Positions 1 through 7,197 of a DNA stretch of 27,354 nt are shown piece by piece; position 1 is the stretch's first letter; every line of letters begins with the position of its first letter. Source of the stretch: a virus (taxonomy: Duplodnaviria > Heunggongvirae > Uroviricota > Caudoviricetes); IMG/VR virus record IMGVR_UViG_2703719365_000004, positions 1 to 27,354 of that record; one strand, given 5' to 3'. The position numbers and the translations under genes were made by a program. The notes under the pieces are model-generated. The model saw nothing but the letters and a program-made list of their open reading frames with translations, was not told the origin of the DNA and made no database searches.

Positions 1-67
1 GACTTTCCAGAACCATACGAATCGCCCGCTGACGGACTTCGGGGGAAAAACGAGTATTTTTAGTCAT
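1..67 (-). CDS. IS3-family transposase OrfA, N-terminal fragment (gene runs off the window start)
   Basis: Minus-strand ATG (complement of about 65-67) followed by MTKNTRFSPEVRQRAIRMVLES, the characteristic N-terminus of IS629/IS1203 OrfA. Confidence 0.65.
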   Translation of the reverse strand, partial: MTKNTRFSPEVRQRAIRMVLES

Positions 68-121
68 CCTGTTTACCTCTATCTCAGGGAGTTTAGTCTC
101 CAGGATTTCCGGAGCGGTTCA
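1..121 (-). mobile_element. Partial IS3-family insertion sequence (IS629/IS1203-like), left end with terminal inverted repeat; continues beyond the window start
   Basis: Reverse complement of 61-121 reads TGAACCGCTCCGGAAATCCTGGAGACTAAACTCCCTGAGATAGAGGTAAACAGGATGACT, which matches my memory of the IS629 left terminus (TGAACCGCCCCGGGAATCCTGGAGACTAAACTCCCTGAGAAAGAGGTAAACAGGATGACT) with a few mismatches. Recall only, not searched. Confidence 0.7.
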
Positions 122-167
122 GCAATTAACGACGAGCTGTACCTCTCAATTTCGAAGCTGCAGGAGC

Positions 168-380
168 ATGCAGCACTGGTCTACAAAATTTTTTGCATTT
201 CAGAAAGTAATGACGCCCGCGAGTGTGCAGCTCCGGGCGCCGTGGCGTGTCGTGACTGTGGAGAAACTAACGCATGAACAGTTTAACAACACACTACCGT
301 CGCTCGCAACTGATTGCACTTCCTGTACCGGGTGGAAAAGCGAAGGTGGAGTATTGCTATGCAGTGAATGTACCAGGTGA
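168..380 (+). CDS. Hypothetical protein with C-terminal CxxC-x(n)-CxxC zinc-ribbon-like motif; possibly the 3' remnant of a gene cut by the IS
   Basis: ORF-track 70-aa ORF ending [21 protein letters not shown]. The same frame is open back to the IS junction at about 122 with no stop. The ATG at 168 has a poorly spaced SD (AGGAG only 1-2 nt upstream). Confidence 0.3.
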
Positions 381-452
381 CAGGGAAATTGTAACCCACA
401 GCTTTGCAGAGTGGGCTGTGGGTGATTTCAACAGGCAAAAGGAGACAGTCCT

Positions 453-632
453 TTGCGACAAGTTAACCGCTGGTTCAAAGATCACTACGGAGTGCCCGTC
501 AGAGTCATTCGTTGGGAACCGGAAACACAACGGGTTATCTACCTCCGCGAAGGCTATGAGCATGAGTGCTTCAGCCCGCTCGAACAGTTTCGTCGTAAAT
601 TCAGGGAAATAGAGGTCGGTCATGAGCACTAA
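453..632 (+). CDS. Small hypothetical protein (about 59 aa, TTG start), not in the ORF track
   Basis: Frame-0 translation [65 protein letters not shown] at about 437-442 sits 8 nt before the TTG. Codon choice looks host-like and the sequence is globular-looking, unlike the Ser-rich tail of the overlapping frame-1 ORF 274..612. Confidence 0.3.
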
Positions 633-1563
633 ATTAACCGGCTATGTATGGGATGGTTGCGCTGCGTCAGGCATGAAGTTATCCAGCGTGGCAATTATGG
701 CCCGCCTGGCTGATTTCAGTAATGACGAAGGTGTGTGCTGGCCATCAATTGAAACCATTGCCCGCCAGATTGGCGCGGGGATGAGCACCGTCAGAACGGC
801 TATCGCACGGCTGGAAGCAGAAGGCTGGTTAACGCGTAAGGCGCGTCGCCAGGGTAACCGCAATGCGTCGAATGTTTATCAGCTTAACGTTGCGAAGCTT
901 CAGGCAGCGGCATTTTCTCAACTGTCAGATTCTGACCCGTCAAAATCTGACGCATCAAAATCTGACCCGTCAAAATTTGATGCGTCGAAATCTGGCAAAA
1001 AAGCGGGTTTTCACCCGTCAGAATCTGGCGGGGATCCGTCAGTAAAATCAAAACATGATCCGTCAGATAAAAAACCTTCTCGTCCGGACGCTTCGCAACC
1101 GGACACGCAGACGGATGAACAGGATTTTTTAACTCGCCATCCTGATGCGGTTGTATTCAGCCCTAAAAAGCGCCAGTGGGGGACGCAGGATGATTTGACC
1201 TGTGCACAGTGGCTCTGGAAAAAAATCATCGCCCTGTACGAGCATGCCGCCGAATGTGACGGCGAGGTGGTTCGTCCCAAAGAACCGAACTGGACAGCCT
1301 GGGCAAACGAAATTCGCCTGATGTGTGTGCAGGATGGTCGTACTCATAAACAAATCTGCGAGATGTACAGCCGCGTCAGTCGCGATCCGTTCTGGTGCCG
1401 TAACGTGCTCAGCCCGTCGAAGCTGCGGGAAAAATGGGATGAGCTTTCCCTGCGCTTATCGCCGTCCGTCAGCACGTACACCGAAAAACGCGAGGACCCG
1501 TACTTCAAAGCCAGTTACGACAACGTGGACTACAGCCAGATCCCGGCAGGATTCAGGGGGTGA
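622..1563 (+). CDS. Phage replication initiation protein (N-terminal winged-helix/HTH origin-binding domain, repeat-encoded linker, C-terminal domain)
   Basis: 313-aa ORF. N-terminus (IARQIGAGMSTVRTAIARLEAEGWL) looks like an HTH_36-type replication-initiator domain. Sits at the expected O-gene position and contains internal iterons. Confidence 0.85.
   Translation: MSTKLTGYVWDGCAASGMKLSSVAIMARLADFSNDEGVCWPSIETIARQIGAGMSTVRTAIARLEAEGWLTRKARRQGNRNASNVYQLNVAKLQAAAFSQLSDSDPSKSDASKSDPSKFDASKSGKKAGFHPSESGGDPSVKSKHDPSDKKPSRPDASQPDTQTDEQDFLTRHPDAVVFSPKKRQWGTQDDLTCAQWLWKKIIALYEHAAECDGEVVRPKEPNWTAWANEIRLMCVQDGRTHKQICEMYSRVSRDPFWCRNVLSPSKLREKWDELSLRLSPSVSTYTEKREDPYFKASYDNVDYSQIPAGFRG
925..1075 (+). repeat. 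Iteron array (putative origin of replication) embedded in the replication gene
   Basis: Tandem approximately 15-bp units TCTGACCCGTCAAAA / TCTGACGCATCAAAA / TCTGACCCGTCAAAA / TTTGATGCGTCGAAA, then more CCGTCAG-containing copies and A-rich tracts. They encode the repetitive SDPSKSDASKSDPSKFDASKS linker. Layout parallels lambda ori inside gene O. Confidence 0.6.
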
Positions 1564-1565
1564 GC

Positions 1566-2054
1566 ATGAGTCTTTTGAATGACGTTCAGAAATTCATTGA
1601 AGCCCATCCGGGCTGTACTTCCGGAGACATTGCGGATGCTTTTGCAGGTTACTCACGGCAGCGCGTTCTGCAGTCTGCAAGCAAGTTACGTCAGAGTGGG
1701 CGTGTGGCTCACCGTTGTGAAGGGGATACACGCAGACATTTCCCGCGCCTGACTGAGAGAGCGCAGGAGCCGGAACCACAACCAGTTCGTGAAACCAGAC
1801 CTGTGCGCAATTTCTATGTCGGCACTAACGATCCCCGGGTGATTTTGTGCCTGACCCGCCAGGCTGAAGAACTGGAGTCCAGGGGCTTATACCGTCGTGC
1901 TGCAACGGTGTGGATGGCGGCATTCCGTGAAAGCCACTCCCAGCCAGAACGAAACAATTTTCTGGCGCGTCGTGAGCGGTGCTTACGGAAAAGCAGCAAG
2001 CGCGCTGTATCGGGTGAAGAGTGGTATCTGTCAGGGAATTACGTGGGGGCTTAA
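1566..2054 (+). CDS. PerC/ANR-family-like transcriptional regulator (putative)
   Basis: ORF track 1560..2054; ATG at 1566 is preceded by AGGGGG. C-terminal segment AEELESRGLYRRAATVWMAAF...RRERCLRKS resembles the PerC-family motif as I recall it. Family assignment is from memory only. Confidence 0.5.
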   Translation: MSLLNDVQKFIEAHPGCTSGDIADAFAGYSRQRVLQSASKLRQSGRVAHRCEGDTRRHFPRLTERAQEPEPQPVRETRPVRNFYVGTNDPRVILCLTRQAEELESRGLYRRAATVWMAAFRESHSQPERNNFLARRERCLRKSSKRAVSGEEWYLSGNYVGA

Positions 2055-2707
2055 TGAGTAATAAATATTGCCAGGCGCTGGTGGAGCTGCGGAACAAACC
2101 AGCCCATGAACTGAAGGAAGTGGGCGATCAGTGGCGCACGCCGGACAACATTTTCTGGGGAATTAACACCCTGTTTGGCCCGTTTGTTCTGGATCTGTTC
2201 ACTGACGGTGATAACGCCAAATGTGCCGCTTATTACACTGCGGAAGACAACGCGCTGGCGCATGACTGGTCAGAACGTCTTGCGGAGCTTAAAGGTGCTG
2301 CCTTTGGTAATCCCCCATACAGCCGCGCCAGTCAGCATGAGGGGCAATACATCACCGGCATGCGTTACATCATGAAGCATGCCAGTGCCATGCGTGATAA
2401 AGGCGGGCGCTATGTTTTCCTGATCAAAGCTGCCACCAGCGAAGTGTGGTGGCCGGAAGATGCAGATCATATTGCTTTTATTCGCGGGCGTATTGGTTTT
2501 GAACTGCCTGCCTGGTTTATCCCGAAGGATGAGAAGCAGGTGCCGACAGGCGCTTTCTTCGCTGGTGCTATTGCTGTTTTCGACAAGACCTGGAAGGGAC
2601 CGGCAATCAGCTACATCGGGCGCTATGAACTTGAGGCATGTGGTGAGGCCTTTCTGGCGCAGGTTCGCCAGCAGGCAGAAAAACTGGTCAGGGAGATGGC
2701 GGCATGA
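2054..2707 (+). CDS. Phage DNA N6-adenine methyltransferase (Dam-like)
   Basis: Catalytic NPPY motif (AAFGNPPYS) in the track translation. ATG at 2054 overlaps the upstream stop (TAATG). Nin-region position typical for phage Dam methylases. Confidence 0.9.
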   Translation: MSNKYCQALVELRNKPAHELKEVGDQWRTPDNIFWGINTLFGPFVLDLFTDGDNAKCAAYYTAEDNALAHDWSERLAELKGAAFGNPPYSRASQHEGQYITGMRYIMKHASAMRDKGGRYVFLIKAATSEVWWPEDADHIAFIRGRIGFELPAWFIPKDEKQVPTGAFFAGAIAVFDKTWKGPAISYIGRYELEACGEAFLAQVRQQAEKLVREMAA

Positions 2708-3030
2708 CGACGTTAACTCAATGCCAGCAGCAGGTGCTGGATATGCTGATTTCTTATCAGAAAGAACGTGGCTTCCCGCCAACCAATCAGGAGGTGGCAA
2801 CCATGCTGGGATACCGTTCAGTGAATGCAGCGGTGGAGCATCTTCGCGCACTGGAGAAAAAAGGCGTCATCACGATAAAGCGTGGCGTGGCCCGGGGGAT
2901 AACGCTTCATATCGCGGTGAAGGACGACGACAGCGAGGCGGTCGGGATTATCCGCGCACTGCTTGCCGGTGAGGAAAACGCAAGGCTGCGTGCAACCCAC
3001 TGGTTACATGAGAGGGACCTGAAAGTATGA
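2704..3030 (+). CDS. LexA-like DNA-binding protein (LexA N-terminal winged-helix domain only; no S24 peptidase domain)
   Basis: MTTLTQCQQQVLDMLISYQKERGFPPTNQEVATMLGYRSVNAAVEHLRALEKKGVITIKRGVARGITLH aligns with the LexA N-terminus ([58 protein letters not shown]...). The protein ends after 108 aa without the Ala-Gly cleavage site or Ser/Lys dyad region. Confidence 0.85.
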   Translation: MTTLTQCQQQVLDMLISYQKERGFPPTNQEVATMLGYRSVNAAVEHLRALEKKGVITIKRGVARGITLHIAVKDDDSEAVGIIRALLAGEENARLRATHWLHERDLKV

Positions 3031-3416
3031 AGCTGATCCTGCCTTTTCCGCCCAGCGTGAACACGTACTGGCGACACCCCAACAAAGGGGCGTTTGCTGG
3101 TAAGAGCCTGATAAGCGCGGCGGGGCGAAAATTCCAGAGCGCGGCGTGCGCAGCAATAGTTGAGCAGTTACGTCGTCTGCCGAAACCAACGTCGGCACCT
3201 GCTTCAGTGGAGATCGTGTTGTTTCCTCCGGATAACCGGATCCGCGATCTGGACAACTATAACAAGGCGCTGTTTGACGCCCTGACCCACGCGGGTGTGT
3301 GGGAAGACGACAGTCAGGTGAAAAGAATGCTGGTGGAGTGGGGACCGGTTATCCCGGAAGGGAAGGTCGAGATCACTATCAGTAAGTACGAGAAAACGGC
3401 GGGTGCAGCCGCCTGA
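3027..3416 (+). CDS. rusA: Holliday-junction resolvase RusA
   Basis: 129-aa ORF starting MKLILPFPPSVNTYWRHP with the conserved acidic residues (DLDNYNKALFDAL) typical of RusA. Nin-region context. Confidence 0.9.
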   Translation: MKLILPFPPSVNTYWRHPNKGAFAGKSLISAAGRKFQSAACAAIVEQLRRLPKPTSAPASVEIVLFPPDNRIRDLDNYNKALFDALTHAGVWEDDSQVKRMLVEWGPVIPEGKVEITISKYEKTAGAAA

Positions 3417-3435: not shown

Positions 3436-4245
3436 ATGAATAATCTGATGGTCATTGATGGTATTGAAGTTCGTCGTGATGCTTATGGGCGTTACAGCCT
3501 GAACGATCTGCATCGCGCAGCAGTAGCATCTGGTGCAAATGCCAGAACCAAGGAGCCGGGAAAGTTTCTTTCCAGCCAACAAACTGTTGAGCTTGTTCAT
3601 GAATTGACCAACACCCAGAATTTGGGTGTTGACCCGGTGAGTGTGATTCATGGGGGAAATGAACGGGGAACGTATGTCTGCAAGGAACTGGTGTATGCCT
3701 ATGCAATGTGGATCAGCCCGTCATTCCATCTGAAGGTGATCCGTACTTTCGATATGGTAACCAGCGCACCGGAAAAATTATCCGGACAGGCTGCTGACAA
3801 GATGCAGGCTGGCGTGATCCTGCTGGACTTTATGCGCCGGGAGTTAAACCTGTCTAACTCTTCAGTGCTTGGTGCCTGTCAGAAACTCCAGGAGGCTGTT
3901 GGCTTACCGAATCTGGCACCGCGCTATGCCATTGATGCTCCTGCTGACGCGCCTGATGGCTCAAGCCGCCCCACGCTATCATTGAGTGCACTGCTGAAGC
4001 AGTATGGTATCCGCCTGACAGCTAATCAGGCATATCACCAGATGGCGAAGCTGGGGATCGTTGAACAACGTGAACGATACAGCCGCACTGCGATTAACAA
4101 CATCAAAAAATTCTGGTCGCTGACAGCGAAAGGCTGCATGTTCGGCAAGAACATCACCAGTCCCGCAAATCCGCGCGAGACGCAGCCGCATTTCTTCGAA
4201 TCCCGATTCCCTGAGCTGTTAAAGCTGCTCGATACCGTTCATTGA
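3436..4245 (+). CDS. KilA-N domain protein (antirepressor-like)
   Basis: N-terminus MNNLMVIDGIEVRRDAYGRYSLNDLHRA...YAMWISPSFHLKVI is a typical KilA-N domain. AGGAG-type RBS (GAGGAGAAACGAAGT) upstream. Confidence 0.85.
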   Translation: MNNLMVIDGIEVRRDAYGRYSLNDLHRAAVASGANARTKEPGKFLSSQQTVELVHELTNTQNLGVDPVSVIHGGNERGTYVCKELVYAYAMWISPSFHLKVIRTFDMVTSAPEKLSGQAADKMQAGVILLDFMRRELNLSNSSVLGACQKLQEAVGLPNLAPRYAIDAPADAPDGSSRPTLSLSALLKQYGIRLTANQAYHQMAKLGIVEQRERYSRTAINNIKKFWSLTAKGCMFGKNITSPANPRETQPHFFESRFPELLKLLDTVH

Positions 4246-4246
4246 G

Positions 4247-5242
4247 GTGACCGTGAGAGCACTACTGACTCCTGAAATTGCCCCGCGTATGGGGATCGTA
4301 TTGTTCAGGCCAGGTTCAGAGCTGATGCCCCTGTTTATGCAGGGGCGTGTCCTGCTGGAGCCTGAGCCGGAACGTTATTCATCTTTCGCCAGTGGTGCCG
4401 TTCCGGCGGCATCACAACCGCTGGCGGATGATCCTGCCGTTCGGGCCGTGTTCCGCAATGAGGCAGTGATCCGTCGTGCTGGTGGCGTGGAATGTCTTGA
4501 AAGCTGGTTACTTCGTGAAAAAGGCTGCCAGTGGCCTCATTCCGACTGGCACAGCGAGAACATGACCACAATGCGACACGCTCCGGGCGCAATCCGTCTG
4601 TGCTGGCACTGCGATAACCAGCTGCGCGATCAGTTCACGGAACGGCTGGAATCAATGGCAACGGATAACTGTGCCCGCTGGGTGTTGTCTGTTGTGCGTC
4701 GGGATCTCGGTTTTGATGACAGTCACGTTGTGACAATGCCGGAACTGTGCTGGTGGCTGATTCGTAATGACCTGGCGGATGCCTTACCGGAAAGTGCAGC
4801 CCGTAAGGCACTTAGATTACCGAAGCCTGTTGTGCCGTCTGTTACCCGGGAAAGTGACCTTGTGCCTTCGGTTCCTGCCACCAGCATCATCCAGGATAAA
4901 GCGAAAAAGGTGCTGGCGCTGAAAGTGGATCCTGAGTCGCCGGAGTCTTTTATGTTACGCCCAAAACGTCGCCGCTGGGTTAATGAAAAGTACACGCGCT
5001 GGGTTAAGACACAGCCGTGTGCATGTTGTGGAAAGCCTGCTGATGATCCCCACCACCTGATAGGTCACGGTCAGGGAGGAATGGGTACAAAAGCGCATGA
5101 CCTCTTTGTGTTGCCTTTGTGCAGAAAGCATCACGACGAGCTGCATGCGGATACCGTGGCATTTGAAGAGAAGTATGGCTCCCAGCTGGAGCTGATATTT
5201 CGTTTTATCGATCGTGCGCTGGCAATAGGCGTACTGGCGTAA
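4247..5242 (+). CDS. DUF968-domain protein (YdfU-like)
   Basis: 331-aa ORF with C-terminal Cys/His cluster CACCGKPADDPHHLIGHGQGGMGTKAHDLFVLPLCRKHHDELH. Lies immediately upstream of a Q-like gene, as YdfU does in the Qin prophage of E. coli K-12. GTG start is presumed to be translationally coupled. Confidence 0.8.
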   Translation: MTVRALLTPEIAPRMGIVLFRPGSELMPLFMQGRVLLEPEPERYSSFASGAVPAASQPLADDPAVRAVFRNEAVIRRAGGVECLESWLLREKGCQWPHSDWHSENMTTMRHAPGAIRLCWHCDNQLRDQFTERLESMATDNCARWVLSVVRRDLGFDDSHVVTMPELCWWLIRNDLADALPESAARKALRLPKPVVPSVTRESDLVPSVPATSIIQDKAKKVLALKVDPESPESFMLRPKRRRWVNEKYTRWVKTQPCACCGKPADDPHHLIGHGQGGMGTKAHDLFVLPLCRKHHDELHADTVAFEEKYGSQLELIFRFIDRALAIGVLA

Positions 5243-5255
5243 GTGGAGAACGAGC

Positions 5256-6008
5256 ATGAACTTTGAAGCCTTACCGAAATATTACTCCCCAAAATCTCCA
5301 AAATTGAGCGATGACGCACCGGCGACAGGCTCTGGTGGTTTAACAATTACGGATGTAATGGCTGCGCAGGGGATGGTGCAGTCGAAAGCACCGCTTGGGT
5401 TTGCCTTATTCCTGGCAAAAGTTGGTGTTCAGGATCCTCAGTTTGCGATTGAAGGTCTGCTCAATTACGCGATGGCACTGGATAACCCGACATTGAACAA
5501 ATTGAGTGAAGAAACCCGGCTACAGATCATTCCTTACCTTGTGAATTTTGCCTTTGCTGATTATTCCAGGTCTGCGGCAAGTAAGGCTCGCTGTGAGCAT
5601 TGTGCTGGTACTGGATTTCATGATGTATTGCGCGAGGTGGTGAAACACTCCAGAAGCGGGGAATCTGTTATCAAGGAAGAGTGGGTGAAGGAACTGTGTC
5701 AGCATTGTCATGGTAAGGGAGAAGTCAGCACAGCGTGCAGAGGGTGTAAGGGTAAAGGTATTGTCCTGGATGAAAAAAGAACCAGGCTTCATGGCACGCC
5801 TGTTTATAAGGTTTGTGGGCGTTGCAATGGAAACCGGTTTAGCCGTTTACCAACCACACTGGCGCGGCTTCATGTCCAGAAGCTGGTACCAGACCTGACG
5901 GATTATCAGTGGTACAAAGGATATGCAGATGTCATTGATAAACTGGTTACAAAGTGCTGGCAGGAAGAAGCGTATGCTGAGACACAATTGAGGAAAGTGA
6001 CGAGATGA
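5256..6008 (+). CDS. Late-gene antitermination protein Q (QuuQ/YdfT-like, with DnaJ-like CxxCxGxG zinc-finger repeats)
   Basis: 250-aa ORF with CEHCAGTG, CQHCHGKG, CRGCKGKG and CGRCNGNR motifs. Located just upstream of a strong promoter-plus-terminator unit and the lysis genes. Confidence 0.8.
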   Translation: MNFEALPKYYSPKSPKLSDDAPATGSGGLTITDVMAAQGMVQSKAPLGFALFLAKVGVQDPQFAIEGLLNYAMALDNPTLNKLSEETRLQIIPYLVNFAFADYSRSAASKARCEHCAGTGFHDVLREVVKHSRSGESVIKEEWVKELCQHCHGKGEVSTACRGCKGKGIVLDEKRTRLHGTPVYKVCGRCNGNRFSRLPTTLARLHVQKLVPDLTDYQWYKGYADVIDKLVTKCWQEEAYAETQLRKVTR

Positions 6009-6037
6009 ATGATTTTCGACGAAAATGGCGACATGAT

Positions 6038-6068
6038 GCTTGCATTTTTCAAAAAAAATGGATAATAT
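6038..6068 (+). promoter_or_regulatory. Putative late promoter PR' (with presumed qut region) downstream of Q
   Basis: -35 TTGCAT, 17-bp spacer (TTTTCAAAAAAAATGGA), -10 TAATAT, about 30 bp after the Q stop codon. An intrinsic terminator follows roughly 50 nt further on. Confidence 0.5.
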
Positions 6069-6113
6069 TTTCTCAATGATAGGCATTGTGTGTCCGGCTT
6101 TAATAAAAAGTAG

Positions 6114-6141
6114 AAAACCCGCTGATGTGCGGGTTTTTTTT
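6114..6141 (+). terminator. Rho-independent terminator (tR'-like) after the PR' leader
   Basis: AAAACCCGC-TGATGT-GCGGG followed by a run of eight T. Confidence 0.65.
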
Positions 6142-6219
6142 CGGAATTTTAGATGTGTGGCATTGAAATGGTATTCGGCGAGTAGGTAGAATTTAAACTT
6201 TCGTCTCGTCTGGATCGAC

Positions 6220-6762
6220 ATGATGTTTCAAGCCTTCCAAACAGCAGTATTTAAAAATGTTGCAGAGTATTTAAAAGGGCGCTTCCCTCATAAGTCGTTA
6301 GGGCTCGTATATGCCGACGAGCTGGTACTAAAAGATATGGAGTTCCTCAAGGCTAACAATAAACTGCGGTGGGATCCCGGACTAAAGTCGCGAGTGTTTA
6401 TGGATATGATGGAAGAACACCCGATAAAACTAGTTGTTTATTATCGTGGGGAGCCTATTGGATTTGCATTTGGGTGTTACTGTAAGCCGAAAAATGCGGT
6501 GCATATTTGCTGGATGGAAAAACGTAATGATGCACATGAAGACCTAGACCATCAGATGCTTGGTATCGTTTTGGATTGCTTCTCTGCATATGCACGATTT
6601 CTGAACCTTCAGGGTGAATCTATTGATTCGATAGCTTTAGTTAGTCCAGTTGATGGGGCAATAAGATACTATACTGAAAGTGGTTTTGAGTACATTGCTG
6701 ATTACGAACGAGGTGGTTGCGCAATGGTGCTTAGGAGCGTTTTACCTAACCAATCAGTGTGA
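6220..6762 (+). CDS. Cargo (moron) protein, GNAT-fold acyltransferase-like, function unknown
   Basis: 180-aa ORF in a visibly AT-rich block. The C-terminus (AIRYYTESGFEYIADYERGGCAMVLRS) resembles the GNAT C-terminal helix/strand and QMLGIV sits where motif A (Q/R-x-x-G-x-G/A) would be. Its own sigma70-like promoter (-35 TTGAAA, 18 bp, -10 TAGAAT) lies at about 6170-6200. No good SD. Confidence 0.6.
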   Translation: MMFQAFQTAVFKNVAEYLKGRFPHKSLGLVYADELVLKDMEFLKANNKLRWDPGLKSRVFMDMMEEHPIKLVVYYRGEPIGFAFGCYCKPKNAVHICWMEKRNDAHEDLDHQMLGIVLDCFSAYARFLNLQGESIDSIALVSPVDGAIRYYTESGFEYIADYERGGCAMVLRSVLPNQSV

Positions 6763-6953
6763 GTTAGATTCTTAATTTCTCCAGAATCATTACAAAAGTA
6801 TTGAAAACCTCTTTTAGTTGATGCAATCTGGATCCACACAAAGCACACACAAAATGTACTACGCTTTACTTTATACATCTTCAGGTAACAAACTTTGTTG
6901 CCTTTATGCTTCAAAGAAGCAACTACAGCTTAGTGCTGAACAAGGGGATTTTT

Positions 6954-7139
6954 ATGAAACATCATGAGCAGATAGAGATTGAGGCAGCTAAAGTCGTCGC
7001 CGAACTCTTTGCTGGCAATGCATCTCCAATGGAAACCTTTGGTATTACATGGAGTCAAACTCAGATGTTAGAGCGTAAGAATCCTGGTGTAGTGATCAAA
7101 CTAGTACCGGATGACGGTAAAAAACTTGCGTATTGCTGA
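6954..7139 (+). CDS. Small hypothetical cargo protein (about 61 aa) co-located with the GNAT-like gene
   Basis: ORF track 6906..7139. The internal ATG at 6954 (MKHHEQIEIE...) has a strong SD (AAGGGGA, about 7 nt spacing). AT-rich codon usage matches the upstream gene. Confidence 0.5.
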   Translation: MKHHEQIEIEAAKVVAELFAGNASPMETFGITWSQTQMLERKNPGVVIKLVPDDGKKLAYC

Positions 7140-7197
7140 TAATTTTTAAAGATTTTTTCAGCTAGAGAATCGATTATTTTACTATAAATCGCGAAGG

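Follow-up and report, generated by a model that had tools for sequence, protein, structure and literature searches.

The window, by which we mean the whole stretch of 27,354 nucleotides of tailed-phage DNA that was analysed (IMG/VR record IMGVR_UViG_2703719365_000004, positions 1 to 27,354), contains an intact and conserved gene for a small LexA-like protein. This protein comprises the DNA-binding winged helix of LexA, lacks the autocleavage domain, and ends in a conserved tail unrelated to LexA. The gene is under purifying selection, and it is an already known, correctly annotated and common phage gene. We tentatively propose, while holding the proposal somewhat doubtful, that its product is a dimeric and RecA-proof reader of LexA-type operators, which is made in lytic growth and re-occupies SOS-type sites on phage and host DNA once host LexA has been destroyed. 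In the following, this proposal is weighed against other readings of the same gene.

The LexA-like open reading frame is intact over 327 bp on the + strand, from an ATG at position 2704 to a TGA at 3028-3030 (Table 1). An earlier note, made from the sequence of the window, had placed the gene in an overlapping cluster with those for Dam and RusA, and it does lie in such a cluster: the Dam stop and the LexA-like start share the sequence ATGA at 2704-2707, and the LexA-like stop and the RusA start share another ATGA at 3027-3030. Judging from these overlaps, the LexA-like gene is translationally coupled to both neighbours. A promoter scan of window positions 1-3400 on the + strand recovered no sigma-70-like promoter upstream of the LexA-like gene, and neither did it recover the dam promoter annotated in SfV. 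Since it appears to have no such promoter of its own, the LexA-like gene is most likely a delayed-early gene that is read from the rightward early promoter.

Table 1. Features of the LexA-like gene and of its neighbourhood in the window.
Feature	Position	Strand	Basis or context
Replication-initiator-like HTH_36 protein	622-1563	+	same rightward early operon, upstream
PerC/YfdN-like protein	1560-2054	+	same rightward early operon, upstream
Phage N-6-adenine methyltransferase (Dam)	2054-2707	+	PF05869, TIGR01712; RefSeq annotation of identical locus
Shine-Dalgarno-like AGGGAG	2690-2695	+	8 nt 5′ of the LexA-like ATG; direct sequence reading
LexA-like gene, 108 aa	2704-3030	+	ORF; profile matches in Pfam, NCBIfam and PHROG; 100% identity to copies in O157:H7
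LexA-type winged helix-turn-helix, residues 1-68	2704-2907	+	PF01726, AF2 secondary structure, Foldseek
Recognition helix VNAAVEHLRALEK, residues 40-52	2821-2859	+	alignment to E. coli LexA
C-terminal tail, residues 74-103, two amphipathic helices, putative dimerisation module	2923-3012	+	AF2 model, family conservation
RusA Holliday-junction resolvase	3027-3416	+	PF05866; conserved synteny
KilA-N protein	3436-4245	+	nin-type region, downstream
DUF968/HNH protein	4247-5242	+	nin-type region, downstream
Q antiterminator	5256-6008	+	nin-type region, downstream

Two further observations concern the surroundings of the gene. The gene directly 5′ of dam encodes a YfdN-like protein whose C-terminal region is of the PerC / ANR type (Pfam PerC, E 3e-9); this protein is a further small putative regulator encoded by the operon. 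Further downstream, between the Q antiterminator and the lysis genes, positions 6000-7500 form an island of low GC content (37-41% versus about 53%) at what is the stx site of Stx phages; it contains open reading frames at 6220-6762 (180 aa) and 6906-7139 (77 aa), and there is no Pfam match in either.

The identity of the N-terminal domain is well established. Residues 1-65 match the entire Pfam profile PF01726, LexA_DNA_bind (profile positions 1-65/65, E 2.9e-19, score 69 bits, cut-off 23.7 bits), and a phmmer search with the protein as query recovered three structures of E. coli LexA (1LEA, 1JHH, 3JSO) at E ~1e-15. The AlphaFold model, with a pLDDT of 83, contains helices at residues 6-22, 28-35 and 40-52 and a two-strand wing at 56-58 and 66-68. 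In Foldseek comparisons, this model superimposed on 3JSO, 1JHH and 1LEA with an rmsd of 1.0-1.3 Å; for 3JSO, a complex of LexA with DNA, the rmsd to the LexA domain was 1.0 Å over 68 residues at 50% identity.

The earlier note had described a stand-alone LexA DNA-binding protein without an autocleavage domain, and this description holds. The protein ends at residue 108 and has no match to Peptidase_S24 (PF00717) with its Ser119/Lys156 dyad. The lexA equivalog profile TIGR00498 aligns only over its positions 1-91/203, and the resulting 69.3 bits fall below its cut-off of 110.95 bits. A HMMER alignment does pair Ala-Gly at residues 88-89 with Ala84-Gly85 of LexA, in a stretch of low confidence. 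These two residues vary among the relatives (AN, VG, ER and others) and lie inside a predicted helix, so they form no credible cleavage site; a LexA-type cleavage site, including one cleaved in trans, was therefore rejected, in agreement with the claim of the note that no such site exists. Self-cleavage on RecA* requires the LexA domain that carries Ser119 and Lys156. As the LexA-like protein has no such domain it should be unable to self-cleave on RecA*, and resistance to RecA*, which follows from the established biochemistry of LexA, is plausible.

One element of this description did not survive. The protein had been said to align with the LexA winged helix and then to stop; the winged helix is there, but a conserved tail of 40 residues follows the wing. 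In residues 69-108, a linker leads into helices predicted at 74-87 and 93-103, and the tail follows the family pattern EA..(I/L)(I/L)RAL.......A...A..(W/L)L, in which L86, L87, A93, A97 and L101 are invariant or nearly so. The tail is kept in relatives down to 38% identity. Hydrophobic residues recur at i, i+4 and i+7 in both helices, and from this spacing we infer that the tail is probably a helical hairpin that dimerises. A search of the protein collection with the tail alone (43 aa) returned only fragments of the LexA-like protein itself, so the idea that the tail is a portable module is without support. Two LexA heads can also be joined without an S24 dimer interface, as in two proteins of the representative library (P0126, 222 aa; P0129, 352 aa), each of which carries tandem LexA_DNA_bind domains in a single chain.

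The residues through which LexA contacts DNA are Ser39, Asn41, Ala42, Glu44 and Glu45 (PMC3091678). Four of these five, Ser39, Asn41, Ala42 and Glu45, are kept in the LexA-like protein, which has Val at position 44, and this makes binding to an SOS box plausible. The idea in the earlier note, that the protein could occupy such boxes without being inactivated by RecA*, is likewise plausible. Within the family, Ser39 and Asn41 hardly vary, Glu44 is kept in no member, and positions 42-45 vary, as in NTITG of Citrobacter, NTVFI of P0137 and NGAFE of Kosakonia. The recognition helix reads SVNTITGH in Citrobacter as opposed to SQNTVFIH in P0137, in hosts that have the same SOS box. Divergence is also faster in the LexA-like protein, at 49-58% identity, than in the adjoining RusA, at 76-81%. 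Variation of the recognition helix and fast divergence may fit a diversifying operator specificity at least as well as binding to a fixed SOS box.

These observations lead to a different reading, modelled on the protein gp6 of the Bacillus phage GIL01. This truncated LexA homologue activates the late promoter P3 by binding its own palindrome, GaCACAn nTGTGaC, which is centred at -43.5 of P3 and overlaps the -35 element (PMC6182141). By analogy, the LexA-like protein would be a captured LexA domain with an operator of its own, other than the SOS box, and would activate or repress a phage promoter and so time the lytic programme. We consider this doubtful. It would account for the variable recognition helix that never has Glu44, for evolution faster than that of the neighbours, and for a window that has no SOS box. 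Against it, the protein of the window keeps Ser39, Asn41, Ala42 and Glu45, and phages of this kind already have cI, Cro and Q for timing. Furthermore, when spacings of 0-16 between CTGT and ACAG half-sites were counted in five carrier phages, only N8 rose above expectation; non-canonical spacings were accordingly dropped as an alternative operator, and no recurrent palindrome on CTGT half-sites, other than that with N8, was found in these five phages for such a regulator.

The LexA-like gene is widespread. It is present in 2233 of the 5426 complete E. coli genomes (41%), usually as one copy and at 90-100% nucleotide identity, and 100% identical copies occur in many O157:H7 strains, in a prophage that is integrated at the tRNA-Thr gene beside proA. 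Copies at 94-99% protein identity are found in SfV (orf42), SfII (gp44), SfIV, mEp460 and phage cdtI, and at the same level of identity in Stx2a, Stx2c and Stx2k converting phages. The protein is identical to RefSeq WP_000210141.1, a 'LexA family transcriptional regulator', and matches phrog_362 ('transcriptional repressor') over its full length (positions 1-106/106, E 2.1e-58); the SfII and mEp460 copies are annotated 'LexA DNA binding domain protein', and a comparative study of Stx phages lists the protein as a pham of 15 phages with pfam01726. The gene can therefore not be called unusual: many published phages and 41% of complete E. coli genomes carry it, and it is already annotated as encoding a LexA DNA-binding-domain protein. 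No functional study of the family (PHROG 362) was found in the literature searched.

More distant relatives are also informative. A HMMER scan of 1.84 billion representative proteins gave 11,531 matches at E <= 1e-3, mostly LexA proteins. Among them, full-length relatives of 106-135 aa at 38-49% identity keep both the winged helix and the tail. Between close alleles, residues 1-69 are nearly invariant and the few substitutions cluster in the tail; the better-separated pairs of these alleles have dN/dS values of 0.06-0.19, which are below 1. These data bear on the view that the gene is a dead remnant of a full-length LexA or CI-type repressor gene. The protein does look like LexA cut short, and the databases include some partial or frameshifted entries. 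The length (104-118 aa) and the specific tail are nevertheless conserved across enterobacterial genera at 38-49% identity, dN/dS lies below 1, a good ribosome-binding site and apparent translational coupling are present, and intact copies are carried by plaque-forming phages and by thousands of genomes. On the strength of this conservation the remnant view is effectively refuted, and we regard it as highly improbable.

The position of the gene is remarkably constant. The family member of the window occupies the usual place of PHROG 362, in the nin-type region directly 5′ of rusA and before DUF968 and Q. The LexA-like gene lies directly 5′ of rusA at identities from 97% down to 38%, usually with a stop/start overlap: this arrangement is found in the window, SfII, SfV, cdtI and mEp390 (47% identity), in the metagenomic or genomic loci L007, L010 and L011 (38-48% identity), and in 10 of 12 further loci from Shigella, Citrobacter, Kluyvera, Kosakonia and Enterobacter. 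Two loci (L008, L013) have one small gene between the LexA-like gene and rusA. The 5′ neighbour varies, being a gene for Dam, a C5 methyltransferase, PerC or an initiator, or a small open reading frame.

Such constancy on the 3′ side, while the 5′ side varies, is what would be expected if the LexA-like protein were a partner of RusA, with its winged helix tethering or regulating the resolvase on DNA, either in a complex or, in some phages, within one polypeptide. A further argument for such a partnership comes from a fusion that occurs naturally. Two species of Kluyvera, one of them Kluyvera cryocrescens, have the LexA-like winged helix in frame with a complete RusA (L019 4001-4627, L020 4004-4639), and a linker of about 12 residues stands where the tail would be. 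This architecture is represented by 24 clusters at 90% identity (P0252-P0275), with one entry from Klebsiella sp. The proteins measure 202-212 aa, are down to 73% identical to one another, score above threshold for both Pfam domains, and retain the acidic RusA motifs DLDN...DD intact. One junction is common to all of them, so the fusions represent a single, maintained event. An apparent second event in E. coli (P0330) was rejected, since this singleton has lost about 36 residues from the N-terminus of RusA through an in-frame deletion and is probably defective.

Two interpretations of the fusion can be given. The winged helix and RusA may act together, as the partnership would have it. Equally, RusA may supply the dimerisation that the tail normally provides. 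RusA is a homodimer, and a swap of the tail for RusA in one sub-lineage fits a dimerising role of the tail. In favour of the second interpretation, the tail persists where rusA is missing: in L021 and L025, which have no rusA, the LexA-like gene and its tail are intact, and they are likewise intact in SfIV, whose rusA is interrupted by an in-frame TGA near 8297 and is a pseudogene. RusA is, moreover, frequent in phages that have no LexA-like gene, and most matches in the search for RusA fusions were stand-alone RusA proteins. The fusion, too, is a single event that can be read either way. We think it unlikely that the protein is a partner of RusA.

If the protein reads SOS-type operators, as in our preferred proposal, candidate sites should be sought in the phages that carry it. 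The earlier note had proposed a scan of the prophage for CTGT-N8-ACAG boxes, and the outcome was mixed: negative for the window, positive for the same prophage outside it. The window contains no CTGT-N8-ACAG box, its matches with one mismatch are at chance level (11 observed versus 8.9 expected), and it has no match of at least 12 bits to an SOS-box position-weight matrix, which was built from classical E. coli operators. In the same prophage, a perfect 20-bp LexA consensus box, TACTGTATATAAAAACAGTA (in the sense of cI), is located beyond the left end of the window, at a distance of about 850 bp (L001 16444-16463), within the linker codons of the gene for a cI-type S24 repressor.

This intragenic box is not peculiar to one prophage. 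A box at this site, 209-230 nt into cI, recurs in mEp460, SfII and prophages of Shigella and Citrobacter, and also in a locus in which cI is only 71% identical; its recorded positions include L002 29167, L016 1103, L015 572, L018 996 and L007 836. Its half-sites are conserved while the spacer and the flanking codons change. The box could be an internal or antisense promoter under SOS control, or a roadblock.

Canonical SOS boxes of 22-27 bits (PSSM) are present in every complete carrier phage examined, namely in SfII and the O157 prophage (in cI) and in SfV, SfIV, cdtI and mEp390; in the last, a strong box lies 5′ of a dinI-like gene. In two distant lineages, at 40% and 38% identity, the LexA-like gene is directly preceded by a terminator, an SOS-box promoter and a conserved open reading frame of 75-82 aa (L008 5500-6000, L010 4480-4990). 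The small open reading frames of these two loci are 53-55% identical and have no Pfam match. By analogy, this promoter would provide the kind of SOS-box control that is seen at lexA. No strong SOS box was found in lambda, the sole control phage. Temperate enterobacterial phages commonly have SOS boxes, and host LexA alone explains those of the carrier phages; for the phage protein, the boxes show opportunity, not proof.

Other boxes lie at accessory genes. In SfV, cdtI and others (L003 34170, L005 44083, L010 7739, L020 7929), a conserved SOS box overlaps the start of a late-region gene for an N6/N4 methyltransferase; the corresponding gene of the window, at 7397-7711, is an N-terminally truncated pseudogene from which the box is gone. 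In SfIV, a strong box (L004 8640-8659) lies about 100 bp 5′ of a KilA-N-type gene that follows the rusA pseudogene, and its position suggests that this gene is LexA-controlled and antirepressor-like. In the window, the junction before the KilA-N gene measures only 20 bp and has no SOS box. Finally, a CARF-related match to a PADLOC defence model (E 3e-4) was dismissed as marginal.

These strands can be combined into the following scheme for the proposed operator reader. The protein would derive from the N-terminal domain of a gammaproteobacterial LexA, and would be sequence-specific and insensitive to RecA. It would be made in lytic growth from the rightward early (nin-type) operon, coupled to the translation of Dam and RusA. 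The winged helix would read LexA-type CTGT half-sites, and the two-helix tail would bring about dimerisation in place of the C-terminal domain of LexA. Having no S24 domain, the protein would outlast the cleaved host LexA; it would then re-occupy the SOS-type operators of the phage, such as the box inside cI and the SOS-box promoters of accessory genes, and possibly also SOS promoters of the host.

On sequence grounds, this scheme is supported by the four contact residues kept of five, the missing S24 domain, the conserved tail and its replacement by RusA in one sub-lineage, the low dN/dS, the SOS boxes in carriers and the SOS-box promoter before the gene in two lineages. Conversely, Glu44 is lost, and the divergent recognition helices in hosts with one and the same SOS box look like diverging specificity. 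The protein also changes faster than RusA, and the window has no box. Host LexA accounts for the boxes, with lambda as the only control, and gp6, the closest precedent, binds a different palindrome and is an activator. An operator reader of SOS type, a regulator of the gp6 type and a partner of RusA are not fully exclusive of each other. Two bolder versions can be formulated. In one, the winged helix and RusA would form a functional unit, either a sequence-directed resolvase or one whose activity or expression is gated by a RecA-proof mimic of LexA. In the other, the protein would bind the box inside cI after the loss of host LexA and thereby lock the phage into lytic growth. We judge it improbable that either applies.

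If one of these bolder versions were true, a new link would emerge between the recognition of SOS operators, recombination and the lysis-lysogeny switch, Stx2 converting phages included. The carriers comprise about 40% of complete E. coli genomes, and among them are Stx2a, Stx2c and Stx2k converting phages and Shigella serotype-converting phages. Should the product re-repress SOS promoters or modulate RusA, prophage induction and toxin release after exposure to DNA-damaging antibiotics would be affected, as would cross-talk between co-resident prophages, and GIL01 gp6 would gain its first counterpart from a Gram-negative host. For now, the LexA-like gene is an ordinary, correctly annotated phage gene for a putative regulator.

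Several known systems can be compared with the LexA-like protein. SfV orf42, SfII gp44, the mEp460 protein, PHROG 362 and WP_000210141.1 belong to the same family, with the gene order Dam - LexA-like - RusA. Nothing of substance differs in SfV, SfII, mEp460 and the RefSeq entries, where the gene is known as an annotation only. With the N-terminal domain of E. coli LexA (1LEA, 3JSO), the protein has the winged helix in common, at 50% identity over 68 residues. It differs from E. coli LexA in lacking the S24 domain, a conserved Ala-Gly site and the LexA dimer interface, in the replacement of Glu44 by Val, and in the unrelated two-helix tail after the wing. The non-cleavable LexA variants lexA3 G85D and S119A (1JHF, 1JHH) are of full length, retain the native dimer interface and have proven SOS-box binding. 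The LexA-like protein would be analogous to them in function, as a LexA-type operator binder that RecA* cannot remove.

The closest parallel is provided by gp6 of GIL01, with which the LexA-like protein was compared by description. Both are phage-encoded LexA DNA-binding domains without a protease, and owing to the precedent of gp6, a LexA head of this kind already counts as a described type of regulator. gp6 shares about 44% identity with the LexA domain of its host, is produced early once the SOS response has been induced and requires Lys38 for its function, and lysogeny of GIL01 is maintained through repression by host LexA together with gp7 (PMC6182141). The two systems differ in several respects. 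gp6 consists of the domain only, whereas the LexA-like family has a helical tail of 40 residues, a lambdoid context and a link to rusA. GIL01 is a tectivirus of a Gram-positive host and depends for lysogeny on host LexA and gp7, whereas the O157 prophage has its own cI-type S24 repressor and Cro. Finally, gp6 activates the late promoter of GIL01, while the late genes of the prophage are under the control of the Q antiterminator.
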